The notes: a model not told the origin generated them from the letters alone. 64,000 nucleotides of DNA from a virus (IMGVR_UViG_3300027816_000098:2561-66560); one strand, 5' to 3'. Counted from the stretch's first letter, positions 45,485 to 61,145 are shown. Translations and numbers: made by a program.

Positions 45485-45516
45485 AAAAGAGGGTAGAATC
45501 TCTCCTACCCCCTTTT
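45485..45516 (-). terminator. Intrinsic terminator after the holin-like gene
   Basis: AAAAGGGGGTAGGA-GAGA-TTCTACCCTCTTTT. Confidence 0.8.
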
Positions 45517-45524
45517 TTCTAATT

Positions 45525-45767
45525 TTATTTCTTTTTAGCAGATTTTGGTTCTGGCTTTGCACCAATACCAAATTTTGTATCTTTTGGATTAACTGCACGA
45601 AGAACAACCCAAACTGCTGCAGAAACTGCTGAGTTTAGAATTGTGCCTAAAGCATCTCCAGTTAAAGATGTTAGGTCTGCACCAGTAGCAACGAATTGTG
45701 TTACTAATGCGATAACAAATGCGTTCAAGGCTGATCCAAGAACTTTTTTGTTCAGTACTGATTCCAT
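45525..45767 (-). CDS. Holin-like small membrane protein
   Basis: Two hydrophobic helices, LRAVNPKDTKFG motif and basic C-terminus; own promoter and terminator. Confidence 0.7.
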   Translation of the reverse strand: MESVLNKKVLGSALNAFVIALVTQFVATGADLTSLTGDALGTILNSAVSAAVWVVLRAVNPKDTKFGIGAKPEPKSAKKK

Positions 45768-45829
45768 TAATATCCTCCTTTAGGACATTGATTATACAAT
45801 TGTACACCCTATAGTAAGTGGTGTCAATA

Positions 45830-46144
45830 CTATGATATTTCTAGGCCGCTTATATGAAAACTTACGTTAGCGTTGCTTGCTACCAGTCTAACGGTATTAG
45901 TAGCCACTAGAACCTGTTTTGCATCAATGATAACAGAATCTCTTGCTGGGACTGTTGATTCTACAGCCAAGCCTATGTTATTAAGAAAAATAGAGTAAGT
46001 TCTTGCGGTTGTATCGGAATTATTAACTACAATATTTGTAATTAAAGTTGTTGTTGCTGATGGTACTGTGTATACAGTACTTGCAGAAGTAGGAGATACT
46101 ACTGGTGTAGCACCTCTATATATTACTTTAAATGTATTAGCCAT
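45830..46144 (-). CDS. ~110-aa virion adaptor protein (paralog 1)
   Basis: VYTVP...ITNIVVNN...VPARDS...FHISGLEIS. Confidence 0.7.
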   Translation of the reverse strand: MANTFKVIYRGATPVVSPTSASTVYTVPSATTTLITNIVVNNSDTTARTYSIFLNNIGLAVESTVPARDSVIIDAKQVLVATNTVRLVASNANVSFHISGLEIS

Positions 46145-46151
46145 GATTCTC

Positions 46152-46751
46152 CTATAGTCCTAAAAGTGCTAGAACTTCTGTATTATCTATTCTACCACCT
46201 AAAGTTCCGTGTTCTTCTATCCCAACCCAAGCGGATCCAGACCAAATAGTCTGTTGATTTGTATCCTGAAGATATGCTAAAGTTCCCTCAACTGGAGCGG
46301 TAAGTGCTGAGTTTCTACTAGTTGAGTTAGTAAATATATTAATACCTTTATTTGCTTGCGTTGTATTGTCAAAAGTAGCAGTACCATTTAATGCAGTATT
46401 TCCAGTTACTGTTAATTGATCATTTACTGTTAAATCATCTCCAATAGTAACATCGTCAGGAAGACCTATTGTTACAAACCCAGTAGATGCTGAAAGACTT
46501 ATTTCGTTTGCTGTGCCACTTAATGTTAAAACAGCACTTGCGGCAATTCCTTCTAGCAATGTTTTAAAGGATGCTATATGAGCATGAATACTATCTGCTG
46601 CTGGGGTGTCTGTTGCCCCGTCAAAATTTTCTACACCAAAATGATAGGCTAAAAATGCTTCTCTAATGTTTGCTGGATCAGTCAATTCTGGAATTAGAGT
46701 ATCAAATTCCGTTGAAGGATAATTCGCTGCTATACTAATTAACTCTGCCAT
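46152..46751 (-). CDS. Virion fibre protein
   Basis: IPELTDPANI N-terminus; GTANEI..GLPDDVTI repeat; RNSAL..PVEGTLAYLQDT motif. Confidence 0.65.
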   Translation of the reverse strand: MAELISIAANYPSTEFDTLIPELTDPANIREAFLAYHFGVENFDGATDTPAADSIHAHIASFKTLLEGIAASAVLTLSGTANEISLSASTGFVTIGLPDDVTIGDDLTVNDQLTVTGNTALNGTATFDNTTQANKGINIFTNSTSRNSALTAPVEGTLAYLQDTNQQTIWSGSAWVGIEEHGTLGGRIDNTEVLALLGL

Positions 46752-46760
46752 ATATCTCCA

Positions 46761-48044
46761 TTATACAGGGAACGTATCCTTGAATTCATACTTAATTGTT
46801 GCAGGAAATGTTTCAGCATCTACAACATCTATAGCAAATACAATATCATCACCTATAATAGTATGTGTTACGATATAGTTTATAGTTCCAACATTTATAA
46901 CATCTGGCGTGCTAGAAGATACTGTTGTTCCATTGTGGATTATTCTTTCATCATGAAATAGGTAGTTTCCATTTTGACTTATCTGTATTTTTAAATCAAC
47001 TGTTCTTAATTGAGTCTTACTTACGGATCCCAACACAACAGATCCAGAAGAACTTTGAATTATTTCCTGAAGATCAAAAGTTGAATAGTTGTATTCTGTA
47101 ACAATATCAGCAGTATTTAAAATCATCTGCATAGAAGGTTGATTATCTGATATTAAATATAAAACATCGGGGGAGTTAAATGGTACCTTAAATATAATAT
47201 CTCCACTATCATCACCATTATTAGTTACACCATCATTATATATAGCACTTGCTGCATATGAATATGCACTTCTAATATAATTAGCATTTCCAGGTGTATT
47301 TACAGATATTTTATATAATTGTCCTCTTAGTAATTGTACTTCTTGTGTTTCTACCCCTCCAACATAATATGCTTCAGGGTGTAATAAACTTGTTATAAAT
47401 ACTTGTGTGTCTATATCAAAATATGTAAATGATGCTGATGTTGCTGAAGCACTTGTAATATCGTAAATATTGTAATATGTTGCTTCATTAATAGGTCCTT
47501 CTGGTCCAGTTGCACCAGCAGGCCCAGCAGGTCCAGCGTTTCCAATTGGTCCTGGAGGTCCAGCAGCACCTGTTGCTCCAGTTGCTCCAGTTGCTCCAGT
47601 TGCACCAGTTGGTAGTATTAAGTTTAAAAATGCACTTGCAGATGTTCCAGTAAAATAAGCACTTGCTGTTGCACCATTTGTAACTGAGCCAACTGCAATA
47701 TTTGTAAATGGTCCAGCGGCACCAGTAGCACCAGTTTCACCTTGTAATCCTCTTAGTCCAGATTCTAAAATAAATTGCCAAACGCTGTCATCGCCAGGAA
47801 CTGCAGTATATTGATAAATAGATCCATAATCTAAATCACCAGTGTTGCTATTAATAAATAAATCTCCAATTATAGGAGACTCATTTAAAAATACAACGCT
47901 GCCTGCACCAGTTGGTTGACCAGGTCCAGCAAATATATAACTTCCTCTATCACCTTTAGGACCAATATCTACTTGTAAATCAATTGAAGATGGAGGACCT
48001 ATAACTGTAATTTGATCTGTACTAACTACTGGACTAATTGCCAT
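46761..48044 (-). CDS. Collagen-like repeat fibre protein
   Basis: (G-X-Y)n runs such as GATGATGAAGPPGPIG. Confidence 0.85.
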   Translation of the reverse strand: MAISPVVSTDQITVIGPPSSIDLQVDIGPKGDRGSYIFAGPGQPTGAGSVVFLNESPIIGDLFINSNTGDLDYGSIYQYTAVPGDDSVWQFILESGLRGLQGETGATGAAGPFTNIAVGSVTNGATASAYFTGTSASAFLNLILPTGATGATGATGATGAAGPPGPIGNAGPAGPAGATGPEGPINEATYYNIYDITSASATSASFTYFDIDTQVFITSLLHPEAYYVGGVETQEVQLLRGQLYKISVNTPGNANYIRSAYSYAASAIYNDGVTNNGDDSGDIIFKVPFNSPDVLYLISDNQPSMQMILNTADIVTEYNYSTFDLQEIIQSSSGSVVLGSVSKTQLRTVDLKIQISQNGNYLFHDERIIHNGTTVSSSTPDVINVGTINYIVTHTIIGDDIVFAIDVVDAETFPATIKYEFKDTFPV

Positions 48045-48400
48045 TATGATTCCCCAGTTTTTCTAACATCCTGATTTACAGACAATGCTCCAGTTAATAT
48101 TGTATAAACAGTTGAAGAAGATGTTTTTGTAATTTCTAAATCGTAAACATAAGATGAGCCAGTTAATTGATTTCCAAATGTTGGAGTAATTTTACATGTA
48201 ATTGTATCTGTAGATGCGTCAACAGAAGCACTACCATATCCAATAAACTTTGTTGCATCTCCTCTTTCTGTTGCCACTATAAATAAACTAGTATATCCAG
48301 TTAAGTCAAACGCACTACCGTCTGGATTTTTAGGATTGACTACAAAGTCATATTGATCACCACGATAATATGAAATGTTGTATGTTGCAGGAAATGCCAT
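48044..48400 (-). CDS. BppU-N-like virion protein
   Basis: YRGD...FDLTGY...YVYDLEI...TILTG pattern. Confidence 0.65.
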   Translation of the reverse strand: MAFPATYNISYYRGDQYDFVVNPKNPDGSAFDLTGYTSLFIVATERGDATKFIGYGSASVDASTDTITCKITPTFGNQLTGSSYVYDLEITKTSSSTVYTILTGALSVNQDVRKTGES

Positions 48401-48426
48401 TTAATTCACCCTCCTTAATTATATCA

Positions 48427-48714
48427 CTATGACCATGAATTAGGGTCTATTTTTAAATGTTCCCAAGACTTTTCACAGCCACATTTTTCTAACTCGTCCC
48501 AATCAGTAAAAAATGTAGGAGGTATAAAATTATCTTCTTTTTCATCATATTTATAGCCTATACCAGCATATATTTTACCCTCTATATCTAAATATGTTTC
48601 TACCCATTTTTGATCAGGAAATGATTCTTTCATTTGTTCTAAAGATTCTCCTGCTAGTATTGCTACTGCAAAATTATTTTCATCAAGTGCTACAAAATTT
48701 TTAATATAACTCAT
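48427..48714 (-). CDS. Small acidic fibre-assembly-like protein
   Basis: LDENN...YAGIGYKYD...FIPP; paralog of 55123..55395. Confidence 0.65.
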   Translation of the reverse strand: MSYIKNFVALDENNFAVAILAGESLEQMKESFPDQKWVETYLDIEGKIYAGIGYKYDEKEDNFIPPTFFTDWDELEKCGCEKSWEHLKIDPNSWS

Positions 48715-49658
48715 TGTCTATGCTCCCATATAATTATCATACCAGTTCCACCTTTTGCTCCTGCTCCACCGCCGCCACCAGTATTAGGAGTTCCAGCAGA
48801 ACCAGAATTTCCTCCACCACCAAGACCACCAGTGCCTCCAGTTGTACCTCCACCGCCTCCTCCTCCACCAAAAGCAAGGGCACTAATTGTTTGTGATGCA
48901 GAGTTAATAAATGTTGCAGGAAGTGGTGCTTGTAAAGTTACTCCAGTTCCACCATTACCACCAGTACTTCCAGAAGCATTTCCTCCTGCTGCTACACAAC
49001 TTCCACCACCTCCACCACCACTTGCTCCACCAGCACTTCCTCCGTTAAAGCCGTGTCCAGTAGTCCAATACTCTCCACCATTTAATCTTGCCCAAGAACC
49101 AGAAGCACCAGCACCTGCTCCACCGCCAGTTCCAGCAAAAAATCCAGGATTCCCAGATGGACCACCACCTCCACCACCAGGTGAAATTATAACTGTTGAA
49201 TCATTTATTGGATTAAGGTTTCCAGCCCTTGGAGTTGCTCCTACTGTGTAAGCAAAAGTAGATATCCCAATATTACTTCCAAACATTGTTGGACCACCTG
49301 CTTCACCATGTGAATTTGTGTCCTGTAATCCATCTCCACTACTCTGTCCACTAGCATCTCCACCAAACCCAATACTGTAGTACCATGTTGTAGCATTTCC
49401 TACATAATATTTTTTTATATAAGTTACTACTCCACCTCCACCTCCACCATGACTTGTGGATCCTCCACCGCCACCACCAATTAATGCAATATCTATAAAA
49501 TCAACATTTGAAGGTCTTGTCCATGTTCCACTTGTTAAAAAAAATTGAGCATTTCCTAAACCAACAGAAACATTATTATATTTTGTTTTTAATTTTCCAT
49601 AAGCAACATTACTATCTAATGAATGTATATATGATGTATTTATTCTTCTTATACTCAT
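48711..49658 (-). CDS. Glycine-rich virion fibre/tip protein
   Basis: SGTWTRP, IGGGGGG, NTGGGGG motifs; likely start MSIRRI at 49658. Confidence 0.8.
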   Translation of the reverse strand: MSIRRINTSYIHSLDSNVAYGKLKTKYNNVSVGLGNAQFFLTSGTWTRPSNVDFIDIALIGGGGGGSTSHGGGGGGVVTYIKKYYVGNATTWYYSIGFGGDASGQSSGDGLQDTNSHGEAGGPTMFGSNIGISTFAYTVGATPRAGNLNPINDSTVIISPGGGGGGPSGNPGFFAGTGGGAGAGASGSWARLNGGEYWTTGHGFNGGSAGGASGGGGGGSCVAAGGNASGSTGGNGGTGVTLQAPLPATFINSASQTISALAFGGGGGGGGTTGGTGGLGGGGNSGSAGTPNTGGGGGAGAKGGTGMIIIWEHRQ

Positions 49659-50602
49659 GAAGAAAACCACTCTCTAATTAAAATTACTCCTGTACCGCCA
49701 GTTCTACTACCAACAAAGTTAGTTGGAGAAGCACTTCCGCCTCCACCTCTTCCATTAGTTCCAACGGCATTAACCGTAGCACCACAGTCTCCAGTAACCC
49801 CACCACTGCCACCAGCACCACCACCACCATAGCAAACTGCAGAAAATGGAGATGTTAATGTTATTCCAACTCCACCTGTACCACTACTAGCGGTACCTCC
49901 CGCACCACCACCGCCACCACCTGGGCTACTAGTAACAGGAGCAACACCTCCACGACCACCATATCCTTGCCAAGCAATTTTTCCTGTAGTTGGTTCACCA
50001 ATTGCATAAGGAATCATTCCATAAGTATTATTAGGATTGTTTGATCCAGTACCACCAGAAGAACCTAAGCCAAAAGAACCAGCAGAACCACAAGGATGTC
50101 CACCTCCACCACCACCAGGGGCTATTAATGTTCTTCTTAAATTACTAGGGTCAATACCAGTTAAATTTGCCATAGCAAATGAATTAGAAATTGGAGAAAA
50201 AATTGTTGGATTTCCTGCATGTCCCCAAGAATTTCCAGAACAATTATCAGTACCATAAACAGATCCAGTAGCATTTCCACCTATAAAAATATACCATGTA
50301 TTATAGTCCCCAATATAAAATTGGTTAACTTGAATAACAGCACCACCTCCACCACCAGCACCACGTCTTGGTCCAGATACTGTTTGAGCAGATGATCCAC
50401 CACCGCCAACTAAAGCAATATCAATAAAATGAACATTTGCTGGTCTTGAATATGTTGTTGAAGACGAATAGGTAACAACTGATCCAGTTCTAGTAGGAAT
50501 ATATTTAGCAGAAACTCTATTATAAGAAGTATCTATTATATTATTTGTAAGGGTATTATTTATACCAGACAACACTGATGCCTGTGCTAGTCTGATTGAC
50601 AT
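49655..50602 (-). CDS. Glycine-rich virion fibre/tip protein
   Basis: Paralog of 48711..49658 (RPANVHFIDIALVGGGG). Confidence 0.8.
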   Translation of the reverse strand: MSIRLAQASVLSGINNTLTNNIIDTSYNRVSAKYIPTRTGSVVTYSSSTTYSRPANVHFIDIALVGGGGSSAQTVSGPRRGAGGGGGAVIQVNQFYIGDYNTWYIFIGGNATGSVYGTDNCSGNSWGHAGNPTIFSPISNSFAMANLTGIDPSNLRRTLIAPGGGGGGHPCGSAGSFGLGSSGGTGSNNPNNTYGMIPYAIGEPTTGKIAWQGYGGRGGVAPVTSSPGGGGGGAGGTASSGTGGVGITLTSPFSAVCYGGGGAGGSGGVTGDCGATVNAVGTNGRGGGGSASPTNFVGSRTGGTGVILIREWFSS

Positions 50603-50604
50603 TA

Positions 50605-50940
50605 TTAACTTATTTCTGTTCCAAAAGCAGATACAGATATGGAACTACTTGTTCCAGATGCCATTATATACTTACCAGCCTGCATTGTAATACCTAGTGT
50701 CAGTGTCACTGTATCATTTGCAGGCACTGTAGAACCAAAAACTATAAATTCAGATGAAGCAGGTGATGTTGATCCAGACACTGCAAGTCTATATGTTTGA
50801 GCACTTGCTGTTTGATTACATACTACAATTGTAGAAACAATCCAAGATCTTCCAGTAGCAACTGGGCCAGCAATTGTATTATAAGTTGTAATAGCACCAG
50901 CAGTATTTGCTTGTCCTAAAATTCTATAATCTACAGCCAT
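50605..50940 (-). CDS. ~110-aa virion adaptor protein (paralog 2)
   Basis: YRILGQ...VSTIVVCN...VPANDT..LTLGIT...SAFGTEIS. Confidence 0.75.
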   Translation of the reverse strand: MAVDYRILGQANTAGAITTYNTIAGPVATGRSWIVSTIVVCNQTASAQTYRLAVSGSTSPASSEFIVFGSTVPANDTVTLTLGITMQAGKYIMASGTSSSISVSAFGTEIS

Positions 50941-51120
50941 TTATGCCCCCATCAGTAGAAAAGGATGAATCATGTTATCTACATATTTTTTTGTAGCAGC
51001 ATCCTGGTCTACTAGTGGTTCTGCTAAACCTTTAACAGTACCACCAAATTTACTAATCCTAATTGAAGATACCTCTAAAGGATTATCTGGATCATTATGC
51101 GTCAATTGGTCTAATGGCAT
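50941..51120 (-). CDS. 59-aa micro-protein (not in ORF track)
   Basis: AGGAG RBS; MPLDQLTHNDPDNPLEVSSIRISKFGGTVKGLAEPLVDQDAATKKYVDNMIHPFLLMGA; fills the gap exactly. Confidence 0.75.
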   Translation of the reverse strand: MPLDQLTHNDPDNPLEVSSIRISKFGGTVKGLAEPLVDQDAATKKYVDNMIHPFLLMGA

Positions 51121-51128
51121 AATATCTC

Positions 51129-54100
51129 CTATGCTTGTGCTTCAGTCCAGGATAGACGTCCCAATACACTTGCTGAGGCAGAAGAACTTAAGTTTGTTAC
51201 AACAATTGTAAGTGTGTCTGGTCCATCTGGATAGATATTTACGTTAGAGTTTGCTCCTCCACCACCAAGAATAGAGTTACCTAAATCACGAACAGTATTA
51301 AGATCAACGCTATTAGCACCAGATCCTACGAAGAAACCAGCAGTTACCTCACCACCAGATACTGTTGTGGTTCCGCCTGCATAGTTTGCAATTTGTGCAA
51401 GGCTTGAGTTTTGTAATGTAGTTACGTTGTTTACAGCGTTTGTCCATGCAGTTGATGATGATGGTAATCCATTTAATACTGCAGTAATCAAAAGATTTGA
51501 GTTTGCTGTGTTAGTTGTAATGTCAAGAGCACGAAGAACTAACTGCATTCTATTAATAAGTTCTCTTGAACCAAAAGCACCAACAACACCTTGATCTACA
51601 GATGGAGCAACGCGAATTGAGAACAATGCTCTAGAATTTGATGCTGGAACTCCAGTAAATGTGGTTTGTCCATAAGTAAATACAAGAGACTTATCGTCAT
51701 CGTATCTACCATCCATAATTACAGAAGTACCCCAGTGACTAATGGTTGGAGAAAATGTTGGAAACGCTTGCTCTATAACAACTGGAGCGGTTGCTGAATA
51801 AGTAAATGATTGACCACTTGTTGCACCCATTGGTGGGAATAGTACATCAGTAGGGTTAGAGGACAAAGCAGCATTACTAAATGTTAATGTTGTTCCTGAG
51901 ATATTTGTTAAGAATGTTCCTTCAGGAAATGCAGCACTTACTACTCTTTGTCCGATTTGTAAACCAGACGCACTACCAATTGTTCCGCTATTTGATCCAC
52001 TTGCAACTGTTACTGATTGATTTGTTGTTAAACCTGCTTGTGCTCTAGTTAATCCACTAAATGCACTTGCTGAAATTCCTGTATAGTTAATATATTCATA
52101 CTTGCTTGCATCTCTAATGCATAGAGTTCCACTAGGTGGGAATCCTGCTGTGCTAGAAACGTTAATAACTGTATCGGAAGCACCTACGTTGCTTGTAATC
52201 ATGGTTACATATGGAAATGTTTGGCTTTCGTATCTTGCTGGTAAGTTACCAGAACGCATGTATGCTTCACTATTTAAATTGTTATTTGGTTGTTTGTGTA
52301 CATACATTACGTTACCACCAGGACCTCTTACGCCCCAACGAACATAACCTGCACCATACCAAGAATAATCAATGTAGAACATTTGCATCTTAGATAAATC
52401 AATATTATATCCAGAAGGACCTGTTCCATCTATTTTGTCTAAATTAAATTGAGATTGAGGAATCTTTGTATCTACCGTTTTAGAAGCAATAACATGTGTT
52501 GCTGTTGCTCCCCTGTAAGATGGACTAATTGTCATAGAAGTATCAGATGCAATATCTTGTACTTTATAAGATTGTCCACGGATTACAATATAATCACCTG
52601 GATTTATTTGCTTTGAAAAGATTGTTGGGAAAGAAGCAACTGTTTGAGTTACTGTATTAGAACCATTTGTAACGCTAATTCTACCAGCCAGTTGGAAAGT
52701 AGATGATCTTCTTACTGCATAAAGTGTTTGACCATCAAATTCAAAGAATAAACCATTTTGTGTATCAAAGATACCTAAACGGTTTTGTGCACCATACCAT
52801 CCATTTACTGCTACATAGTATGGTCCAGATCCAACGTTTGAAGATGGACTTGTTGCTGTTGTATATTGGAATGTATTAAAACCAGTAACTGATGTTACTG
52901 TAAATGTTCCATTGTAAACAGGATCTAAACATCCACTCATAGTGATTGATGTTCCTGGAAGAATGTTATGTTTTTCTTTAGTTTGAACTGTTACCAAGTT
53001 TCCTACAGCAGTAACTGAGTCTAGTTGTAGATTTGGTTTTAGGATTGTACCAGAACTTGCTTGAATACCCTTACCTGATTGATAACGGAAATAACGGCGA
53101 GTTTGACGTACCATCTGTTCATAGTTAGAACTTGAATTGCTTGAGAAAATAACTCCACCATCTGTTGGGCGATGCAACACTTGTCCTTGTGGTAAATTAT
53201 AAACTGTACCGCTAGCAACTGTTCCAGTTGGTGCTGCTGCAGCATAGTATCTAAATTGTGTTGGGCTAACAATTGTTGTTACAATAAATGATCCGTTAGG
53301 TGCATTTGTGCTTGCTGTTGTTCCAGTTACAACAATTTCGTTACCAATTGATAATCCATGAGGTACTGTTGTTGTTACTGTAATTTGAGTTCCAGAAAAT
53401 GTAATTGTTGGAGTTCCACCAATTGCAGCACTTGTATATAGTGATCCTTGATAAATTGCTGTCTTGTTAGCATCATAAATAGCGGTTACTGCTGTTGTGT
53501 TTGCAGCACGTGCTGTATATGTAGCACTATTTGTACCACCACCTGATTCAATAATAAAGTTACCATTTGCAATACTTAAGAATGAGTCTTGGACAAATAT
53601 CGCTGTACCGTTTGCTGGAAATGTTCCAGAGGAAAGAGCGACTGTAACCGTTCTAGAGTTAGTGTTCATTGTCATAGAAGAAATATTAGGAATTTGAATA
53701 GAAGATGCAAAGGCAAATGGTCTTTGATTGATCATCGATAAGTTTTCCCACTTAGTAATTTGGGTACCATACTCAAAGTCTGTATCGATAAGTGCTTGTG
53801 GAGTTGTTACTCTAAGTTTGTTTGTGGAATCTAAATAAGATTCTGCTGGTATAAATTTTTCTTCATTTTCATCAATTACTATTTGTAATTTATCTGTAGA
53901 AGACATTGAGGTAGTATTATAATTTAAAACAATAGTTGTTGATTCTACCATTGATGAGTTAATGGTTGCACTATAGGAGGTTGCTCTTAAGGCAGGGTCA
54001 GAGAAATTATATATAACTTGATTAGTAGTAACATTTGTAATTAATGTTAGTTTTTCCCTTGGAATAAATTTATTGTTGATAACAATAGTTTTTGTTGATG

Positions 54101-54143
54101 GGGTGAAAGTGTAATCTAATCTTTCTAGTACTTCTCTTGACAT
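51129..54143 (-). CDS. Large virion structural protein (1004 aa) with repeated small beta-domains
   Basis: LITNVTTNQVIYNF N-terminus, DTDFEYG, VTTTVPHGL/HNILPG repeats, WYGAG. Confidence 0.75.
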   Translation of the reverse strand: MSREVLERLDYTFTPSTKTIVINNKFIPREKLTLITNVTTNQVIYNFSDPALRATSYSATINSSMVESTTIVLNYNTTSMSSTDKLQIVIDENEEKFIPAESYLDSTNKLRVTTPQALIDTDFEYGTQITKWENLSMINQRPFAFASSIQIPNISSMTMNTNSRTVTVALSSGTFPANGTAIFVQDSFLSIANGNFIIESGGGTNSATYTARAANTTAVTAIYDANKTAIYQGSLYTSAAIGGTPTITFSGTQITVTTTVPHGLSIGNEIVVTGTTASTNAPNGSFIVTTIVSPTQFRYYAAAAPTGTVASGTVYNLPQGQVLHRPTDGGVIFSSNSSSNYEQMVRQTRRYFRYQSGKGIQASSGTILKPNLQLDSVTAVGNLVTVQTKEKHNILPGTSITMSGCLDPVYNGTFTVTSVTGFNTFQYTTATSPSSNVGSGPYYVAVNGWYGAQNRLGIFDTQNGLFFEFDGQTLYAVRRSSTFQLAGRISVTNGSNTVTQTVASFPTIFSKQINPGDYIVIRGQSYKVQDIASDTSMTISPSYRGATATHVIASKTVDTKIPQSQFNLDKIDGTGPSGYNIDLSKMQMFYIDYSWYGAGYVRWGVRGPGGNVMYVHKQPNNNLNSEAYMRSGNLPARYESQTFPYVTMITSNVGASDTVINVSSTAGFPPSGTLCIRDASKYEYINYTGISASAFSGLTRAQAGLTTNQSVTVASGSNSGTIGSASGLQIGQRVVSAAFPEGTFLTNISGTTLTFSNAALSSNPTDVLFPPMGATSGQSFTYSATAPVVIEQAFPTFSPTISHWGTSVIMDGRYDDDKSLVFTYGQTTFTGVPASNSRALFSIRVAPSVDQGVVGAFGSRELINRMQLVLRALDITTNTANSNLLITAVLNGLPSSSTAWTNAVNNVTTLQNSSLAQIANYAGGTTTVSGGEVTAGFFVGSGANSVDLNTVRDLGNSILGGGGANSNVNIYPDGPDTLTIVVTNLSSSASASVLGRLSWTEAQA

Positions 54144-54150
54144 ATTTTAT

Positions 54151-55083
54151 TTATCCTCCCAAGACTATATCGATTGCTTTGAACGGATATATCCTTGTTC
54201 TTGTTGTAGTAGTTGGTCCTGATACTATTGTAGCATCACATGTCGCTCCAGTTGGAACAGGTCCTGCAAACGCTATATACCCTTGATCATCTATCCTAAA
54301 TCCTCTTCTTGGAATCATTGATTGCCAGACGGTTTCAGGAAAGTCTACTGATTGTATTATACCATTAATTGAAATTGAAAGTTTGAAAGGATTTGTTATT
54401 GCTACACTAGCACTTTGATACATTGGTAAAAATCTAGTTTCTATACCGTTGAATTGTGGAGATAAATCATCTAGTGGTATAATTTCAATTTCTGATTGGG
54501 TTACAGAGTCAAATGCTCCAGCAGTTAATTGGATCCTATTACTTGCATCATTATAAGTTGCTACTAAGTTAGTATGAAAGCCATGATTGAATAAGCCAGA
54601 TACAGCATCTTGAATATATTCTACACCCGTTGAATCCTGTGGAACATATGTTGAAGCCCCGTTGGCTATAGTCAAATATACAGAAGAGGCTGCATTGATT
54701 TGATAGGTTGTATTTGCAGAGGCTGAACTAAAGGCTGAATTAAAGGCTGTTGCAGATGCACTGGTGATGCTATTATAAATATTTGAAAAGAATGCAGGAT
54801 CGTCATTGATAGCGGCTGCTAGTTCATTTAAAGTATCAAGGGTGCCTGGAGAAGCATCTATTAAACTATTTATCTGGGTATCAATATAAGAAACAAGACT
54901 TGATGATGCTGATGTTACGAGGGGTATAGCAAAATAATCTAAACTATTCCATGCTGTAGTTCCATTACCAATTTTAAGTTTATAAGTATCTGTTTCTAGA
55001 CCTAGTTCACCGCTAGATAAAACAGGATTTTCAAATGTCCAAGATGCTGCTAATCCTCTACGAACTTGGATTTTAGTTGCCAT
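54151..55083 (-). CDS. Fibre protein with Mtd-N-like N-terminal domain
   Basis: IQVRRG.AASW...NPVL..GELGLETDT.KLKIGNG.TAW; SPGTLDTLNELAAAINDD motif. Confidence 0.8.
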   Translation of the reverse strand: MATKIQVRRGLAASWTFENPVLSSGELGLETDTYKLKIGNGTTAWNSLDYFAIPLVTSASSSLVSYIDTQINSLIDASPGTLDTLNELAAAINDDPAFFSNIYNSITSASATAFNSAFSSASANTTYQINAASSVYLTIANGASTYVPQDSTGVEYIQDAVSGLFNHGFHTNLVATYNDASNRIQLTAGAFDSVTQSEIEIIPLDDLSPQFNGIETRFLPMYQSASVAITNPFKLSISINGIIQSVDFPETVWQSMIPRRGFRIDDQGYIAFAGPVPTGATCDATIVSGPTTTTRTRIYPFKAIDIVLGG

Positions 55084-55122
55084 TAAATTACTTCACCCTT
55101 ATTTATTATAGCATTACGAGGA

Positions 55123-55395
55123 TTAATTTTCTTTTTCCCATAGACAAGTATCTTCATTTAAAATATAATTATCTCCTGGTTTTGGGGGTATAAAAGCATC
55201 CCTAATTTCATCATAAGTAAATCCAATACCAGCATAGTTCTTTCTAATTCTATTATTATAGGAAGTTTGTTTCCATATACCGCCTAAATTTAAATCATTT
55301 GCAAGATATTCTTGTCCTCTATGTTCTTGAAAATCAGGTATAACTAATACCTGTAAAACAATATTATTTTCATCTATTTGTGCAAAGTGTGCCAT
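55123..55395 (-). CDS. Small acidic fibre-assembly-like protein
   Basis: MAHFAQIDENNIV...RKNYAGIGFTYD..RDAFIPPKP. Confidence 0.75.
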   Translation of the reverse strand: MAHFAQIDENNIVLQVLVIPDFQEHRGQEYLANDLNLGGIWKQTSYNNRIRKNYAGIGFTYDEIRDAFIPPKPGDNYILNEDTCLWEKEN

Positions 55396-55406
55396 ATATT
55401 CCTCCT

Positions 55407-56747
55407 TTATCTTGGATACCTAATTATAACTATTCCTGAACCGCCAGCACCAGCAACTTGTGTGGTTCCTGTAGACTCATTGCGTCCACCACCACCACCA
55501 CCTGAGCCTGTGTTTGCTATTCCAGCAACTCCAGCAGTTGAACCATTACCACCGTTTCCTCCACCATTTGTTCCAGTACCTCTAGTTCCGTATCCAACAC
55601 CACCACCACCGCCGCCGCCATAGACTGTAGAAGCACCAGAAATAGAACTTGTTATTCCAGCACCACCTATACCACCATTGCTTGCATCAGCGTTTCCACC
55701 AGGGCCTCCTGCACCACCACCGCCTCCAGAATTACGTGCATTATCTCCAGGTCCTGGGAATCCATTACCGCCAGCATAACCTTGATTAGTAGTTCCAGAA
55801 GCACCTGTTGTATTGCTAGCACCTCCACCGCCAATAGTTCCGTTAGCACCACCTCCAGATCCACCTGTTGAATTAGCACCAGTGCTTGAATCTTTTCCAC
55901 GACCACCACCAATTGCTTCAATTGAGCCAAATGATGAATTGCTTCCAGGATTATTAGCAGCACCTCCTGAACCAACTGTTACAGTATAATTAACTCCACT
56001 AGATAAAGATAATGGAGATTCTAATGTACCTCCACCACCAGTTTGTCCTGTTGTGCATCTAACACCACCAGCACCTCCACCGCCACCGCCAGATACTCCT
56101 GGTCCTCCACCACCACCGCCACCTGCAACAACTAAATACTCAACAGTAAGTGGCACGGTAGGAGTAAATGTTCCATTTCCTTTAAATGTATGTATATAAT
56201 ATCCACCTATCTCTGATACTTCTCCACCTGATGCATATGCTGATCTTTCTAAAGATTTAATTCCATACAAAGTTGCTGTAGAGTATTGTGGATAAGAACC
56301 ATTATCTGGTGCTATGGATATAGATGTTATAGCAGCACTATCAGACCAAAGTCCAGAAATTATATTTATGGCACCATAAGTAGCATTATTTTCTGCAACA
56401 TTATCTACACTAAAAGGTTTATAGTTTGAAGAAGTATAGCCAGTTATATAAATTTCTGTATTATTAAAAACAGATGCCGTTGCATTTCCCATAACAGTTC
56501 CAGCATATCTTGCAATAGATCCAGTAGATGCACCAGAGCCATCACTAAATAAATATTTATTAGAAAAATTTGATGTAGAGCCATTAAAAGAAATATATTG
56601 TCCAGTTGGTGCGTTATAAGTAGTTCTTGCCGACATAACAATTTTTAAATCGGTATATATTTGAGGAATGTTGGTAAAATTAATAGAAGCAGCACCTGCA
56701 GCACCTACTGTTATAGTTGCTATTTTAGATAATGTTACTGGAGCCAT
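55407..56747 (-). CDS. Beta-sandwich plus glycine-rich virion protein
   Basis: IPQIYTDL...AITSI...LYGIK domain fused to IHTF..VEYLVVAGGGGG...GSGIVIIRY. Confidence 0.8.
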   Translation of the reverse strand: MAPVTLSKIATITVGAAGAASINFTNIPQIYTDLKIVMSARTTYNAPTGQYISFNGSTSNFSNKYLFSDGSGASTGSIARYAGTVMGNATASVFNNTEIYITGYTSSNYKPFSVDNVAENNATYGAINIISGLWSDSAAITSISIAPDNGSYPQYSTATLYGIKSLERSAYASGGEVSEIGGYYIHTFKGNGTFTPTVPLTVEYLVVAGGGGGGGPGVSGGGGGGAGGVRCTTGQTGGGGTLESPLSLSSGVNYTVTVGSGGAANNPGSNSSFGSIEAIGGGRGKDSSTGANSTGGSGGGANGTIGGGGASNTTGASGTTNQGYAGGNGFPGPGDNARNSGGGGGAGGPGGNADASNGGIGGAGITSSISGASTVYGGGGGGGVGYGTRGTGTNGGGNGGNGSTAGVAGIANTGSGGGGGGRNESTGTTQVAGAGGSGIVIIRYPR

Positions 56748-57242
56748 TTATGCCGCCTTTATTCCATATAAATGAAAAGTAGATCCTGAAGTTATATCCC
56801 CACTTGACCAAAATATAGTTATTGATGTAATTGCTGAATTAGATGACCATTTTTGAACTAACATTTCAACTACGTCCGAAGCATTACTTTGGCGTACCAA
56901 GTTTGTTTTATGTTTATTAGTTGATGAATAATCTAGAAAGTTAACTGTAGAAAGAGTTGTTGTTCCAATATTAGTATTACCAGCATAATCAAAAAAGAAA
57001 TAACCAAGGCTAGTTTGTCTATATGAAGCGGTATCGGTGCCATTACCTCGAGTGCCAACCATTGAATAATTACTTCCAGTGTCGGAATTTAATCGCATAT
57101 ATCCTGTTACGCCATTTGTAGAAGGTGATGCAGTTATTTTTAAAACTAAATCAGTATAGGTTTGAGGTATAGAATTAAAAATAACAGAAGATGTTGATGC
57201 TCCTAAAGTTATAGATGATATTGGCTCATATGTTGCTGGCAT
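56748..57242 (-). CDS. Beta-sandwich virion protein (YG-terminal family)
   Basis: IPQTYTDL...AITSI...LYGIKAA. Confidence 0.75.
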   Translation of the reverse strand: MPATYEPISSITLGASTSSVIFNSIPQTYTDLVLKITASPSTNGVTGYMRLNSDTGSNYSMVGTRGNGTDTASYRQTSLGYFFFDYAGNTNIGTTTLSTVNFLDYSSTNKHKTNLVRQSNASDVVEMLVQKWSSNSAITSITIFWSSGDITSGSTFHLYGIKAA

Positions 57243-57838
57243 TATATTACTCCATATAAAGCAAAGTTAGAATGCTGAATCCATGAAGCAGAATTTGCTG
57301 GTATAAATCTAATTGATGTAATAGCGGCAGTGGAACGCCAGTTGCCTGAAAATAAAAATAAAAATCCAGATCCATTTTGATCATGCCCAGTTAATGATTT
57401 TATTGTTTTAAACTTATTTGTATTTGTATAATCTAAAATATCTATTATTCCCACACCAAAAACATTTGCTGTAGAGCCTGCCCCAGGTGTTCTACCAGCC
57501 AACATATTTGTTTGATTAATATTTGCAAATGTTCCAGTTGCAGATAAGTTATTTGAATAAAGTCCATGTTGTGAGTAATTTGATCCTGTATCAGAATTAA
57601 AAATCATTTCTGCGTTATTATCGGTATTGCTAGCAAGATTACACCTACCAGTAAATCTAAGTTGTAAATGAGTATATGTTTGAGGAATATTACTAAATAA
57701 AATTTCACTTGCACCACTTACACCTACAGTGTTAGTAGCAATACTTTCAAAATTGCCAGGTGAAGAAGATTGATCCCATGCCCTGGCTCTTTTTGAACCA
57801 GTAGTCATTGAAGATGTTTTGAAACTTGTAATTGCCAT
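57242..57838 (-). CDS. Beta-sandwich virion protein (YG-terminal family)
   Basis: IPQTYTHLQLR...AITSI...ALYGVI. Confidence 0.75.
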   Translation of the reverse strand: MAITSFKTSSMTTGSKRARAWDQSSSPGNFESIATNTVGVSGASEILFSNIPQTYTHLQLRFTGRCNLASNTDNNAEMIFNSDTGSNYSQHGLYSNNLSATGTFANINQTNMLAGRTPGAGSTANVFGVGIIDILDYTNTNKFKTIKSLTGHDQNGSGFLFLFSGNWRSTAAITSIRFIPANSASWIQHSNFALYGVI

Positions 57839-58170
57839 TATACAATTTCAGCCCCGAATACACTAAATGTTAAATTAGCGGATGAAGCATAAACTGTTAC
57901 AACATCAGAAGCGTCAATTGTTATACCCAATGAAAGTGCTGTACTGTCGTTTGCACCAACAGTAGTATCGTATGCAATATAGTGACTGTTTGCTAACGAT
58001 GCACCATTTGGTCTTAGAGCAATACGATATGTTGCACCACTTGTGTCACGGTTAGTAATGATTATAGTTGAAACTACAACCTGTGTACTAGCCGAAACAG
58101 TATAGATATCAGTAGCGGTTGTAGCACTTGGTGCTGATTGTGCTAAGATCTTATAATTTTTTGTTGCCAT
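57838..58170 (-). CDS. ~110-aa virion adaptor protein (paralog 3)
   Basis: YKILAQSAPSAT...VSTIIITN...ANDS..LSLGIT...VFGAEIV. Confidence 0.75.
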   Translation of the reverse strand: MATKNYKILAQSAPSATTATDIYTVSASTQVVVSTIIITNRDTSGATYRIALRPNGASLANSHYIAYDTTVGANDSTALSLGITIDASDVVTVYASSANLTFSVFGAEIV

Positions 58171-58173
58171 TAT

Positions 58174-58266
58174 TTACCTCCCTGCTAAAAATACATCTTG
58201 TATGCTATCTACGTCTAAATCTTGGACGGTAGTAATTAAATCTGCTAATTCTCTTGCTTTACTCAT
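58174..58266 (-). CDS. 30-aa micro-protein (not in ORF track)
   Basis: MSKARELADLITTVQDLDVDSIQDVFLAGR; TATAAT ends 6 nt before the ATG; shares its N-terminal motif with neighbouring genes. Confidence 0.65.
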   Translation of the reverse strand: MSKARELADLITTVQDLDVDSIQDVFLAGR

Positions 58267-58302
58267 ATATTAATTATATCTCCTTTAATTTTATATACCC
58301 TT

Positions 58303-58917
58303 TTATTTTTTATAACCATAAATTGAAATAGACCCACTCATTGTATTTGCAGCACCGTACATTGTTATTCCATCATAAGATGTTGATAAAGTATGAGTAA
58401 TTCCTGATTCCGATAACCAAAGTTGAGTTGTATCTGCTAAGAGTTTTGCTGTATACCGAGAAAAACCATAAGTTTGAGATGCAGCAAAAGGATTAACAAG
58501 TTCAATTTCAAATAATTCATTACCAGCACTTGCTGTGTAATTTAAATCCCAATTTGTTAACGCTGCTCTAGTTCCATATAGTGTTGTACTAGCACCACGA
58601 ATATTTTGAACACCATAGTTTGATCCAGTTGCGTCACTTCCTCCTGTACGAAGTCTAAAATACGCACCTTCGTTTGCACTCCAGTTTATATTTGTTAAAA
58701 TTCTATATCTATCGTAATTAGCACTAAATATGTTATTTAAAGAAATTGATGAAGCAGTTGCAAAAGTTATTGTACCACTTGTTGATATTGAAGATGTGGC
58801 ACTTCCTCCAACAACTGATATAGAACTTGGAACAATGCTAACTAAGCCTAATTCACTATCTGTAGCCAAGGCGGTACTCGAAGATAAAACCTTTGATATA
58901 TCTCTACTTCTAGCCAT
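58303..58917 (-). CDS. Virion surface protein (MxRxRD tag + YG-terminal domain)
   Basis: MARSRDISK...SIYGYKK; paralog of 62807..63403. Confidence 0.75.
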   Translation of the reverse strand: MARSRDISKVLSSSTALATDSELGLVSIVPSSISVVGGSATSSISTSGTITFATASSISLNNIFSANYDRYRILTNINWSANEGAYFRLRTGGSDATGSNYGVQNIRGASTTLYGTRAALTNWDLNYTASAGNELFEIELVNPFAASQTYGFSRYTAKLLADTTQLWLSESGITHTLSTSYDGITMYGAANTMSGSISIYGYKK

Positions 58918-58935
58918 TATATTTTATATACCCCC

Positions 58936-60189
58936 TTAGTTCCTGTATCCATAAATTCCAACTGTGCCAGTAAAATTACCTGCACTATTACCAAAAGTAA
59001 TTCCTGTTAAAGAAGTAGTTTGATTATATCCACCTACAACTGTAAATAATGATGGAGAAGTACCTGATAAATCTCTACCACTTTGACTTACAATTCTTGT
59101 GTAATCTGTTGCGAAAGGTTTGAATACATCCATAGATATAGCAACTGCTCCAACTGCTTGATATAGTAATTCAAAAGATGATTGACCTGATGCTCTACCA
59201 CCAGTTAAAGTTGTAGAACTTGCTAAAATATTTTGAAACAAATAATTACTTGCAGTAACATTACCACTTCCATTTCGAAATTGAACTGTAATGTTTTGAG
59301 TGCCACTTGTAACGCATTCAAAAATAATTCGATAATTGTTGTAATTTGTATTAAAGACACCATCTATTGAAACACTAGAAGCACTTGTAAAAGAAACTGC
59401 TCCAGTAGAAGAAACGGACCCACTACCACCAGTTACAGCGATAGAAGTTGGAACTAACTGAACTAATCCACCAGCAGCCACAGGAGCGTAAGTAGTAGAG
59501 GCACTACTTTGACTTAAATATGTGCTACTAGCACTAGTTTTAGTTAAAAATTGATCATCAGTTTGTGCAATAGTATAAGTATTAGGAACTCTAAAATTCT
59601 TTAAGGTATGAATTTGAATAATATCATTTGTAACTACCGCCTCATCTAGGGTTACAGCAGAACCACTAGTGGCAACATATTCTTCGGGTGCTAATAAAAT
59701 TCCATTTACATATACTTTTTCTAATCCAGCAGTATAATCTAAAGTAACTGCATTATCATCTAAGCCAGATATAACTGTGCCAGAGGCACTTACAGTTTTA
59801 GTCCATCTTTCAAATGTATTAGCAACTTTATTATCTATTTGTGCTTGTGTATATGTATTACCTACATTTATATTATTATAGGCTATTACTTCTACTATAT
59901 ACCCCGCTGTTAGGGCTGTAAGACCTGTGATTGTGGTTCCTGTAGTTGCTGTGTAGTCTGAGTCTCTTGCTAATAGAACACCATTAAGATATACCTGCTC
60001 ATATCCAGGGGTATAAATTAAAGATTCTCCATTATCATCATTACCAGACAAAGATGTTTCTGATCCTACTGCTGTATATTGCCAGCGGGTAGAATTAACT
60101 AAATTTCCAGCGGTATTTAAAGGTACCCATTCTGTACCATTATAAGCATATAAGGCTTTACCATTTGTTAATATTTGTGCTGATGCCAT
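58936..60189 (-). CDS. Virion surface protein (two YTxG..VYxNG repeats + YG-terminal domain)
   Basis: YTPGYEQVYLNGVLL / YTAGLEKVYVNGILL; ends GIYGYRN. Confidence 0.75.
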   Translation of the reverse strand: MASAQILTNGKALYAYNGTEWVPLNTAGNLVNSTRWQYTAVGSETSLSGNDDNGESLIYTPGYEQVYLNGVLLARDSDYTATTGTTITGLTALTAGYIVEVIAYNNINVGNTYTQAQIDNKVANTFERWTKTVSASGTVISGLDDNAVTLDYTAGLEKVYVNGILLAPEEYVATSGSAVTLDEAVVTNDIIQIHTLKNFRVPNTYTIAQTDDQFLTKTSASSTYLSQSSASTTYAPVAAGGLVQLVPTSIAVTGGSGSVSSTGAVSFTSASSVSIDGVFNTNYNNYRIIFECVTSGTQNITVQFRNGSGNVTASNYLFQNILASSTTLTGGRASGQSSFELLYQAVGAVAISMDVFKPFATDYTRIVSQSGRDLSGTSPSLFTVVGGYNQTTSLTGITFGNSAGNFTGTVGIYGYRN

Positions 60190-60212: not shown

Positions 60213-61145
60213 TTATGTTAAATACCTAATTATTACTATTCCGCTACCGCCTGCTGCTCCACCATTCTTTCCTCCACCACCGCCACCACCAGTATTTGTT
60301 TGTCCTGGATTTCCAGCACCACCGTTATTTTGTGTATAGTTACCACCGCCACCAAGTCCACCATTTCCTGTTGTAGGACCTTCTCCAGATCCACCTCCAC
60401 CACCACCTGCGTAATATGTTGGAGTTCCACTTATAGAAACTTGTGTACCATTTCCTCCGTGACCTCCTGAGTTACCAGCAGTTCCTGATGCTCCAGCACC
60501 ACCTCCACCACCACCTCTATAGTTAACACCGTTTCCACCATTATTTCCTTGTCCAGCAGTTCCTGCACCACCATTTGATGTATCTCCACCACCACCTCCA
60601 CCAGATCCACCACCGTTACCTCCTACGTTATAGTAGTTACCTCCATATCCACCACCTAAAGATGTTATAGTAGAAAAAACTGAATTTGATCCATTATTTG
60701 ATCCAGATGCACCTCCAGATCCTACTGTAACAGTATGAGATCCTGCACTTACTGACATTGTAGAATTTCTTAATCCGCCTGCACCACCACCACCACCTCT
60801 ATCTCCAGCACCACCAGCACCTCCACCAGCAACAACTAAATATTCAACATCTAAAGAAACATTTGCTAAGAAAATACCACTTGATAAAAATGTATGAATA
60901 GTATAAGCACCAGATGTAGTTATATCTCCACCAGTTGCTTTTTGTTGAGTAAGTTTAGGAATTCTAAAAGATGATGATCCAAATATTTGCATCACTGGTG
61001 CAGAAGCACTTGAAGTATCAATCCACAATCTTCCATTAGTATTTGATGAACTAGGAGAAGCAGAAGAAATAACTATTCTAGAATCTAAATCAGAAATACT
61101 TGCAGCGGTAGTAAAAATTTTACTCACATCTCTTGCTCTAGTCAT
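60213..61145 (-). CDS. Glycine-rich virion protein with MxRxRD tag
   Basis: MTRARDVSK; IHTF..VEYLVVAGGG...GSGIVIIRY. Confidence 0.8.
   Translation of the reverse strand: MTRARDVSKIFTTAASISDLDSRIVISSASPSSSNTNGRLWIDTSSASAPVMQIFGSSSFRIPKLTQQKATGGDITTSGAYTIHTFLSSGIFLANVSLDVEYLVVAGGGAGGAGDRGGGGGAGGLRNSTMSVSAGSHTVTVGSGGASGSNNGSNSVFSTITSLGGGYGGNYYNVGGNGGGSGGGGGGDTSNGGAGTAGQGNNGGNGVNYRGGGGGGAGASGTAGNSGGHGGNGTQVSISGTPTYYAGGGGGGSGEGPTTGNGGLGGGGNYTQNNGGAGNPGQTNTGGGGGGGKNGGAAGGSGIVIIRYLT

Follow-up and report, generated by a model that had tools for sequence, protein, structure and literature searches.

A hydrophobic C-terminal tag, a putative jelly-roll adaptor and variable tips recur as a unit in the fibre modules of aquatic phages

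Why would a phage carry, within a single run of fibre-type genes, three versions of the same protein of ~110 amino acids (aa), each encoded directly behind an open reading frame (ORF) that ends in a short hydrophobic tail? The question is raised by positions 45830 to 58266 of a 64,000-nucleotide (nt) stretch of viral DNA, IMGVR_UViG_3300027816_000098:2561-66560 (the window, in what follows, is this whole stretch), taken from within a virus record of 66,560 bases whose completeness CheckV puts at ~61%. Judging by the window and its relatives, the fibre module is a recurring unit, widespread in aquatic phages, made of a tagged shaft or mini-fibre, a jelly-roll protein of ~110 aa (called the adaptor here) and variable tips. 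The unit would begin with a fibre shaft, or with a very short mini-fibre peptide, bearing a C-terminal hydrophobic tag of the form [F/L][L/M][L/T]-M-G-A, and would continue with the adaptor and with one or more tips starting with a conserved ~25-residue motif (MA[IV]S[RK][FL]..S and variants), often followed by a small protein of unknown role. The reading preferred here, at a probability of roughly 0.55, is non-covalent docking, in which the jelly-roll adaptor binds the tag of the shaft and also bears the tip. The adaptor would be a virion component that, by binding the tag, caps or extends the shaft, and it would hold the tip either covalently, in fused forms where it is the N-terminal domain of the tip, or, in split forms such as that of the window, through the N-terminal motif of the tip, so that different receptor-binding tips could be placed on different shafts. 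The tags, adaptors and tips of the window, in the order of transcription, are the following:

58174..58266, minus strand: 30-aa tag peptide (MSKARELADL...VFLAGR), a putative small linker or mini-fibre with a degenerate C-terminal tag; an ORF whose junction with the next gene reads GCA GGG AGG TAA ATA ATG
57838..58170, minus strand: adaptor 3, 110 aa, a canonical clade A jelly-roll protein by its position in the tree; 3360 near-length homologues; phrog_1276 at an expect value (E) of 3.7e-07
57242..57838, minus strand: tip protein of 198 aa, with a MAITSFKTSS motif and a ~165-aa domain ending ..ALYGVI; matched by the hidden Markov model (HMM) of tip N-termini at E 8e-4
50941..51120, minus strand: 59-aa tag-bearing mini-fibre with the canonical tail ..HPFLLMGA; 12 homologues; phrog_1640 tail protein, E 4.7e-4
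50605..50940, minus strand: adaptor 2, 111 aa, a divergent long branch of clade A (BLASTP, tree); AlphaFold2 model with nine beta strands and a predicted local distance difference test (pLDDT) score of 95.8
49655..50602, minus strand: tip of 315 aa with a glycine-rich domain and the N-terminus MSIRLAQ; Gly_rich_2, E 1.6e-10
48711..49670, minus strand: second glycine-rich tip, 319 aa from a GTG or 315 aa from the ATG at 49658 (MSIRRI); Gly_rich_2, E 2e-05; paralogue of the tip at 49655..50602
46152..46751, minus strand: 199-aa tag-bearing protein ending ..EVLALLGL; tail-related PHROGs
45830..46144, minus strand: adaptor 1, 104 aa, clade B (..HISGLEIS), with no tip gene downstream; BLASTP; in a 12-row clade with support 100; 30% identity to gp24 of HTVC010P, E 2e-07

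A first-pass annotation of this DNA had described the three small proteins as paralogues sharing the ending GxEI[SV], and so they are: the proteins at 57838 and 50605 match each other at E 1e-15 in BLASTP, that at 45830 matches them at E 1e-13 and 0.002, respectively, and their C-termini read SGLEIS (adaptor 1), FGTEIS (adaptor 2) and FGAEIV (adaptor 3). In a family alignment of 99 sequences the C-terminal Gly never varies and no fewer than 90% of the sequences have the Glu, the most conserved residues being those of the first (..L.Q) and the last (G.E) strand. The hydrophobic tails that had been noticed directly in front of the adaptors are also where they were said to be, since the 30-aa ORF (..VFLAGR) leaves a gap of 3 nt to adaptor 3, the stop codon of the 59-aa ORF (..FLLMGA) abuts the ATG of adaptor 2 with a gap of 0 nt, and the 199-aa ORF (..LALLGL) lies 7 nt from adaptor 1.

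Are adaptor genes preceded by such tails in other phages? This gene-neighbourhood check had been set beforehand, and it was made on 80 viral loci around adaptor relatives (the best 80 of 277 relatives, from 348 candidate stretches) plus the window, counting as a tag any ORF with 25 aa or more whose end fits a loose tail pattern and lies between 100 nt before and 14 nt after the start codon. An ORF ending in [F/L][L/M][L/T]MGA or a close variant was found just upstream of 72 of the 81 non-redundant adaptor genes, versus 29 of 1032 other gene starts in the same loci under the identical rule, and about a dozen of these 29 are long fibre genes within these modules, each followed by a mini-fibre gene with the tag at its own end. 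With a stricter tail pattern the figures are 71 of 103 adaptor matches versus 18 of 3434 background ORFs. In the tails ending G-x, the positions are occupied by F or L (39 and 16 cases), L or M (30 and 22), L or T (36 and 15), M (49), G (56 of 56) and A (48). The sequence before the last eight residues is unrelated between loci, and the tag-bearing bodies, of 30-797 aa, include collagen repeats, GKYLTTNG[ST]xASW repeats, Mtd_N-like segments and MSKARDLA proteins of 37-42 aa. The 30-aa ORF of the window shares the N-terminus MSKAR[DE]LA.L with ORFs of 37-58 aa that end ..ALMTMGA directly upstream of adaptors elsewhere, and it is therefore a member of a real small-gene family; there are, in turn, 12 homologues of the 59-aa ORF, all but one (68 aa) of the same length and with 65-93% identity, and every one of them ends HPFL[LM]MGA.

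The linkage extends to adaptor domains within larger proteins. In a second sample, for which the queries were an adaptor fused to a glycine-rich protein, a protein of ~330 aa with the adaptor domain at its N-terminus, and a tandem adaptor, at least 26 of 35 non-redundant adaptor-domain ORFs are preceded by a tag: 11 fit the pattern, one follows ..FLLGL, 12 more are preceded by ORFs of 64-69 aa that end ..QFLLMGA[GAS]NG and overlap the adaptor start by 8 nt, and L183 and L196, two of four cases with mis-called starts, show ..RFQFLLMGASNG or ..RYQFLLMGASNG on inspection. The misses include adaptors placed directly after a tip gene and the second or third adaptor-domain genes of a series. At one locus (L083) a 586-aa fibre ending ..FLLMGA is followed, with a gap of 0, by a 397-aa protein that opens with the adaptor domain (residues 1 to 113); the tag therefore goes with the domain and not with the free-standing gene.

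The family to which the adaptors belong is large and has no name. In a word-indexed search 3360 relatives of 60-193 aa were found at E<=0.001 among 3372 candidates, and a full HMMER scan with one representative per 50% identity cluster gave 4597 at E<=0.001 and 1656 at E<=1e-10. Their names, where there are any, are hypothetical, 'structural protein' or an evidently wrong automatic label, and the neighbours of the adaptor in the ESM Atlas are clusters of viral 'hypothetical protein' entries without Pfam families. None of the three adaptors of the window matches a Pfam family at E<=0.01. Adaptors 1 and 3 match phrog_1276, of unknown function, over its first third (E 5.8e-06, profile positions 1-111 of 325, for adaptor 1; positions 1-105 of 325 for adaptor 3), adaptor 2 does not at E<=0.001, and one adaptor has a further match, to the initial ~50 positions of phrog_693 'tail fiber protein'. 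The search of solved structures by sequence returned a chance match only (E 0.69), that of genome contigs with a single protein matched one end of a contig from a metagenome-assembled genome, and Megablast with positions 45500-58400 matched no phage record. Two family members of 129-131 aa (P0137 and P0158) have a hydrophobic, signal-peptide-like N-terminus instead of the usual MA..YKVLGQ start, and these may be secreted or cellular versions of the adaptor.

With the 99-sequence alignment, AlphaFold2 gives the adaptor as a compact all-beta jelly roll of nine strands (mean pLDDT 95.8; predicted template modelling score 0.85), which was compared with 48,161 chains by VIA-align and also by Foldseek and against BFVD. 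The best VIA-align matches are nucleoplasmin-like cores (Z from 9.8, for HDT1, to 8.1), the trimeric cement protein of KHP40 (Z 8.8; root-mean-square deviation, rmsd, 2.9 over 103 residues), Ena spore-appendage subunits (Z 8.3 and 8.2) and the HFTV1 turret (Z 8.1), all at 10-19% sequence identity and in a Z range that VIA-align calls common for unrelated models; C1q-like heads are listed at Z 6.2-6.5. The top Foldseek match is weak (9k09_A, a chain of the portal-tail complex of cyanophage A4; E 6.3e-05, template modelling score, TM, 0.54, rmsd 6.7), and that list also includes 9h3d, the exosporium protein ExsF with the N-terminal peptide of a fibre anchor. BFVD holds predicted viral proteins with the adaptor fold at TM 0.8-0.9, among them 'virion structural protein' entries of ~107-112 aa from Microcystis phage MaMV-DC and Synechococcus phage S-SCSM1 and 'tail fiber-like' proteins of P-SSM2 (504 aa) and S-CAM1 (380 aa). 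The best structural matches of the adaptor (the nucleoplasmin core, KHP40 cement, Ena and the HFTV1 turret) are all oligomeric jelly rolls. Unlike jelly-roll decoration proteins, the adaptor is encoded in a fibre module and not in a capsid context: its genes lie among fibre genes, 12-25 kilobases from the major head gene (31219-32208), its domain is joined to fibre-type ones in other phages, and the capsid linkage of cement or decoration proteins is not seen.

What does the adaptor carry? Fused forms give one answer. From the 150 best cluster representatives, 17 sequences were read, and fusions with the adaptor domain at the N-terminus were found with diverse partners: P0183 joins it to a glycine-rich domain like that of the window tips, P0198 and P0214 (~330 aa) to an unrelated C-terminal domain of ~220 aa, and P0242, P0264 and P0267 to other domains, while P0184 consists of two adaptor domains, a collagen run and a further C-terminal domain; a few of the sequences read bear the adaptor domain at the C-terminus. 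About one in four of the 150 representatives are adaptors with two domains in tandem (212-242 aa; e.g., P0121-P0124, P0131 and P0132), which hints that the domain may act in pairs or in stacked rings, and the collagen run in the same chain of P0184 suggests that it would work in a three-fold assembly. In P0183 the glycine-rich run starts ~15 residues past the adaptor domain, with no MSIRLAQ-type lead segment in between, whereas in the free tip of the window it starts at about residue 65, which fits a lead segment whose role would be to dock the free tips.

The tips themselves point in the same direction. The first-pass annotation had seen similar N-termini in the tip-like genes after two of the adaptors, and this holds: of the minus-strand ORFs in the window with 60 aa or more, just three fit the tip-start patterns, namely those beginning MAITSFK (57242-57838), MSIRLAQ (49655-50602) and MSIRRI (48711-49658), and on the plus strand one ORF (23184-23720), antisense to the tape-measure gene, fits them too. 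The N-termini of the tips are related and their C-terminal domains vary (glycine-rich ..G[SG]G[IV]V[IV]VRY, ..LYGIK or ..TAGTGNVSWA). An HMM was built from the N-termini of proteins encoded after adaptors, with the window excluded, and scanned against 1643 ORFs of at least 60 aa; it matches 94 of them, 56 directly after an adaptor, and those other listed matches whose place relative to the adaptors was checked are found either at a greater distance downstream, in the same modules, or in duplicate loci. In the window it reaches E 0.01 with the 198-aa protein alone (8e-4). The Gly_rich_2 family (PF21722; cut-off 24.3 bits) gives 41.8 bits with the 315-aa tip, 25.2 with the 319-aa one and 70.0 with a third glycine-rich protein of 446 aa. 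The latter belongs to the rest of the cluster:

56748..57242, minus strand: 164-aa paralogue of the ..LYGIK-type tip domain; BLASTP E 3e-16 against the 198-aa protein
55407..56747, minus strand: 446-aa tip with a ..LYGIK-type domain and a glycine-rich domain; Gly_rich_2 E 3.8e-19, phrog_2295 E 1.4e-46
55123..55395, minus strand: 90-aa small protein (MAHFAQIDENN...), last of the first cassette in transcription order; phrog_7759 E 1.1e-30
54151..55083, minus strand: 310-aa fibre protein with an Mtd_N-type N-terminus (Pfam Mtd_N E 2e-14) and the C-terminus IDIVLGG; its membership in the tag system lacks support
51129..54143, minus strand: 1004-aa virion structural protein (phrog_5838), with full-length identity of 46-47% to virion structural proteins of T4-like cyanophages
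48427..48714, minus strand: 95-aa small protein, paralogue of that at 55123-55395; phrog_14370/7759, BLASTP E 1.3e-08
46761..48044, minus strand: 427-aa collagen-like fibre protein; Gly-X-Y run, Pfam Collagen 24.3 bits (under the cut-off of 27.2), tail/tail-fibre PHROGs

The repeat is thus wider than first described, since closing proteins and tips are duplicated too: the two 315-aa glycine-rich proteins are paralogues, as are the 90-aa and 95-aa closing proteins, and a third set of paralogues is formed by the proteins of 198 and 164 aa with the N-terminal half of that of 446 aa. Proteins with N-termini like that of the 90-aa protein (MAHYAKIENG, MAHFAKLDENN) come after tips in other loci as well. 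Just upstream of the first cassette there is another duplicated tip-like domain, in a 204-aa protein (58303-58917, minus strand) that is paralogous to the C-terminal 190 residues of a 417-aa protein (58936-60189, minus strand; 36% identity, E 5e-27), both ending ..IYGY[KR]; beyond them, a glycine-rich protein of 310 aa (60213-61145, minus strand; phrog_2295 E 1.6e-58) is a relative of the 446-aa tip, over the C-terminal half of the latter, and no adaptor gene precedes it. Two proline-rich ORFs of the plus strand (48832-49251 and 55378-55623) are the antisense of glycine-rich genes and unlikely to be genes.

A first alternative to the docking of tips is that the adaptor might be a fibre assembly factor or cap that recognises the tag, helps the shaft to trimerise and may stay on its tip, carrying no downstream tips. 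Such proteins exist: Tfa of lambda, Mu and P2 and the gp38 adhesin of T2-type phages are small proteins encoded right after the fibre gene, which bind the C-terminal end of the fibre and can stay on the tip. Like Tfa, the adaptor is encoded directly downstream of fibre genes and would bind their C-terminal end, as the strong linkage to the tag suggests; the lack of a tip gene after adaptor 1 would be natural for an assembly factor, and the high conservation of the adaptor (68-78% identity among the homologues listed, apart from the window's own near-identical group) would suit a general one. Unlike Tfa, however, the adaptor is conserved while the fibre body varies, and it is the N-terminal domain of further fibre proteins; a domain that heads fusions with diverse partners, and that precedes a collagen helix in one of them, is more readily seen as a structural part than as a chaperone. 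Furthermore, the Pfam scan of the three adaptors, at E<=0.01, included the tail fibre assembly families and matched none, the tip N-terminal motif is found, in the matches checked, only downstream of adaptors, and the position that a chaperone usually takes, after the tips, is already held by the 90/95-aa family. An assembly factor is, on balance, unlikely.

A second alternative denies the contact itself. The tail could be a common terminator of shafts that also provides the ribosome-binding site of the next gene, and the gene order could be synteny or the boundary of recombination at which modules are swapped. There is a real basis for this, since whole cassettes are inherited together and the Gly codons of the tags of the window overlap the Shine-Dalgarno sequence of the adaptors (GGGAGG, GGGGG), which is a caveat to any reading of the tag as a protein signal. 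In most short-gap loci the codons AUG GGA GC yield GGGAG a few bases before the adaptor ATG, and GGA encodes the Gly in 36 of the 41 cases whose gap is below 9 nt. Nevertheless, with gaps of 9-61 nt, where a separate AGGAG precedes the ATG, the Gly is kept with GGT or GGC in 24 of 31 cases, and the codons of the Leu and Ala of the tag vary too; the constraint is therefore on the protein, and a mere by-product of the Shine-Dalgarno sequence is rejected by this codon usage. The tag is, besides, the sole part shared by otherwise unrelated proteins, including peptides of 30-42 aa that have no shaft to terminate, and it is also present on long fibres whose next gene is a mini-fibre and not an adaptor, all of which makes the absence of contact quite improbable. 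Where the genes abut, the same bases read as a conserved protein tag and as the ribosome-binding site of the presumed partner, and the Met-Gly-Ala codons (AUGGGAGC), in doubling as the latter, might couple the translation of both. A fusion of the tag ORF and the adaptor by read-through or frameshift was also considered and rejected, as the distances between the two genes run from -10 to +61 nt with every phase represented, and few of the 150 listed representatives are in-frame fusions. Least probable of all is that the jelly-roll protein is a distal receptor-binding knob held by the tag, with the glycine-rich and ..LYGIK proteins as independent fibres, because, even if jelly-roll heads end many fibres, C1q-like heads are in the fold list and adaptor 1 ends its module, the protein is far too conserved for a receptor-binding surface across annotated hosts as different as the actinobacterium of phiPsal1 (49% identity) and the SAR11 host of HTVC010P, and in fusions its domain is N-terminal with the variable part after it.

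How specific would the docking be? The first-pass annotation had imagined a plug-and-socket assembly code, in which a terminal peptide recruits an adaptor and this docks interchangeable heads. Its core, a unit of tag, adaptor and tip, has gained from the portability of the tag, the N-terminal fusions and the confinement of the tip motif to positions downstream of adaptors; a code of many cognate pairs is not supported, and adaptor 1 has no tip gene behind it. In a quick maximum-likelihood tree, the 81 adaptors split into 12 and 69 rows with support 100. The small clade B, whose members end ..HISGVEI, holds adaptor 1, and all 11 of its non-window adaptors are followed by tips starting MG.SVFP, five of them standing behind tags lengthened by one or two residues (..LMGAL, ..LMGAWA, ..IIMGAYI); in the large clade, 11 of 12 adaptors placed after ..PTALMTMGA peptides are followed by MA[IV]SKLN tips. 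Tails ending ..LLGGM and ..LLMGA precede adaptors that are near-identical in the same tree, and there is therefore no fine code there: a fine-grained cognate code was rejected, leaving two deep clades only.

Cultured phages have the unit as well. In Pelagibacter phage HTVC010P, gp23 (178 aa) ends ..PTALAIALG and is followed by gp24 (121 aa, annotated as 'virion structural protein'), which matches the family profile at E 8e-09 in a small search and, as listed above, is a homologue of adaptor 1; the body of gp23 is unrelated to that of the 199-aa protein of the window (E 0.49), and downstream there are three ..LYG-ending proteins starting MALVKYNN, MSIVKLNN and MALASLYF. Shortly after gp24, gp25 (L248 19256-19579; 107 aa, ending ..ILMEVAG) matches the adaptor profile weakly (E 0.006 with 12 proteins searched) and may be a second, very divergent copy of the adaptor. 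The same arrangement is found in Pontimonas phage phiPsal1, where an 86-aa ORF ending ..ALMLMGG precedes the adaptor homologue. A broader proposal, tentative and held at somewhat less than even odds, is that the six-residue C-terminal peptide and the 110-aa jelly-roll socket, in its two deep clades, make up a general snap-on tip system for several morphotypes of aquatic phage, the very abundant HTVC010P-type pelagiphages among them, with the free peptides of 30-60 aa (an N-terminal anchor plus the tag) serving as branch points.

Several observations weigh against the docking reading. In the window the canonical tail is present on the 59-aa ORF only, those of the 30-aa and 199-aa ORFs being degenerate; adaptor 1 has no tip gene after it, and the two glycine-rich tips fail E 0.01 with the HMM of the tip motif. 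Elsewhere, 9 of the 81 adaptor genes have no tag-ending ORF directly upstream (six of these nine are of clade B and placed after another adaptor-and-tip set), and several adaptor-domain proteins can stand in series behind a single tag, as in L083. The linked classes of tags, adaptors and tips can reflect the common descent of whole cassettes instead of contact, and the 'virion structural protein' of gp24 is a database label. A natural N-terminally extended adaptor, P0204, whose extension (..LQQVLAAIIAGGGGGGGG) resembles the tag, folds in the model with a helix at residues 15-24 and a pLDDT of only 63-73 in the extension, and that model carries no contact information. What we infer, that is, the contact of tag and adaptor, the docking of tips by their N-termini, the stoichiometry and the presence in the virion, is to be read with these points in mind.

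One further tail had been drawn into the system, that of the 310-aa protein. It does end IDIVLGG directly before the 1004-aa gene, as had been noted, and the link to the tag system is what fails: the GGGAGGA between this end and the next ATG is the ribosome-binding site of the 1004-aa gene, and the 1004-aa protein has no adaptor domain (hhalign probability 0.3%). Its full-length identity to virion structural proteins of the cyanomyoviruses S-RSM4, S-RIM44 and S-H9-1 is 46-47%, and the S-RSM4 homologue, which ends alike (..SWTEAQA), is followed by an unrelated gene and has an upstream neighbour ending ..RSKYGV. The 1004-aa protein as a socket for the IDIVLGG tail was rejected on the hhalign value and the S-RSM4 neighbours. 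It also matches two Puniceispirillum phage records. The likeness of a protein of a siphovirus-like contig to those of cyanomyoviruses points, in turn, to a fibre/virion module shared across morphotypes.

As for the surroundings, the minus strand carries nearly all the genes of the window and every gene of the tag, adaptor and tip cluster, which sits inside a long run of fibre-type genes. PHROG matches give a siphovirus-like layout (portal, protease, head protein, a tape measure of 2038 aa and tail proteins); DNA polymerase, primase, helicase, UvsX-like recombinase and ribonucleotide reductase genes are matched as well. A 1208-aa ORF (35923-39549, minus strand) that lies between the last of these and the portal region matches no PHROG at E<=1e-5.

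How much of this is new? Branched complexes, with several receptor-binding proteins on one attachment point by means of conserved docking modules, are known from CBA120, G7C, SP6/K1-5 and the KP32-type phages of Klebsiella. The likeness lies in the conserved docking modules and the variable distal parts. In branched complexes, however, the docking domains lie within large tailspikes and their partner is the N-terminal domain or peptide of another spike, whereas here the socket would be, for the most part, a free jelly roll of 110 aa and the plug a six-residue C-terminal tag that is also found on peptides of 30-60 aa. A Pfam scan and the search of solved-structure sequences found no sequence relation to those docking modules, and there is no CBA120 chain among the fold matches listed. 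The cyanophage A4 paper refers to a conserved attachment module in CBA120, the XD2 domain of tailspike 4 (PMC12002296). Comparable too are the chain-like fibres of the podophages GP4, VP1 and A1002, in which small beta-rich fibre proteins of 140-171 aa are placed on short linear docking segments by beta-sheet augmentation, A1002 using two paralogous small fibre proteins (PMC13730344). Those proteins bind as dimers to repeated segments inside the nozzle protein, whereas here the partner motif would be the extreme C-terminus of a fibre, and the chains of these phages are absent among the fold matches listed for the adaptor. In the literature searched, subscription journals lying outside its scope, the strings FLLMGA, LMLMGA, FLLGGM and LMTMGA are absent, and nothing that describes the adaptor family is among the papers listed for HTVC010P, pelagiphages, tail fibres, adaptors and jelly rolls. 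Docking through conserved modules and small fibre proteins on linear segments is, in short, already known, and it is the adaptor family, the six-residue tag and the tip motif that appear to be undescribed.

Modular or branched assemblies for receptor binding are known in a small number of coliphages and Klebsiella phages in culture, and the uncultured aquatic phages, which dominate viromes, have fibre genes that are mostly 'hypothetical'. A very large unnamed family is now tied to a short recognisable C-terminal tag and to an N-terminal motif of tips, and this gives an annotation rule for fibre modules, in terms of shafts, sockets and tips, that includes real genes of 30-60 codons. It also offers a case of dual coding, in which the last codons of one gene would be both a protein tag and the ribosome-binding site of the presumed partner, as well as a concrete binding hypothesis that can be tested with peptides and a possible handle for swapping tips. 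The unit probably lets phages snap different host-binding tips onto their fibres and, if that is true, the host range of these uncultured phages would be readable from a short sequence tag and could be re-wired through it.

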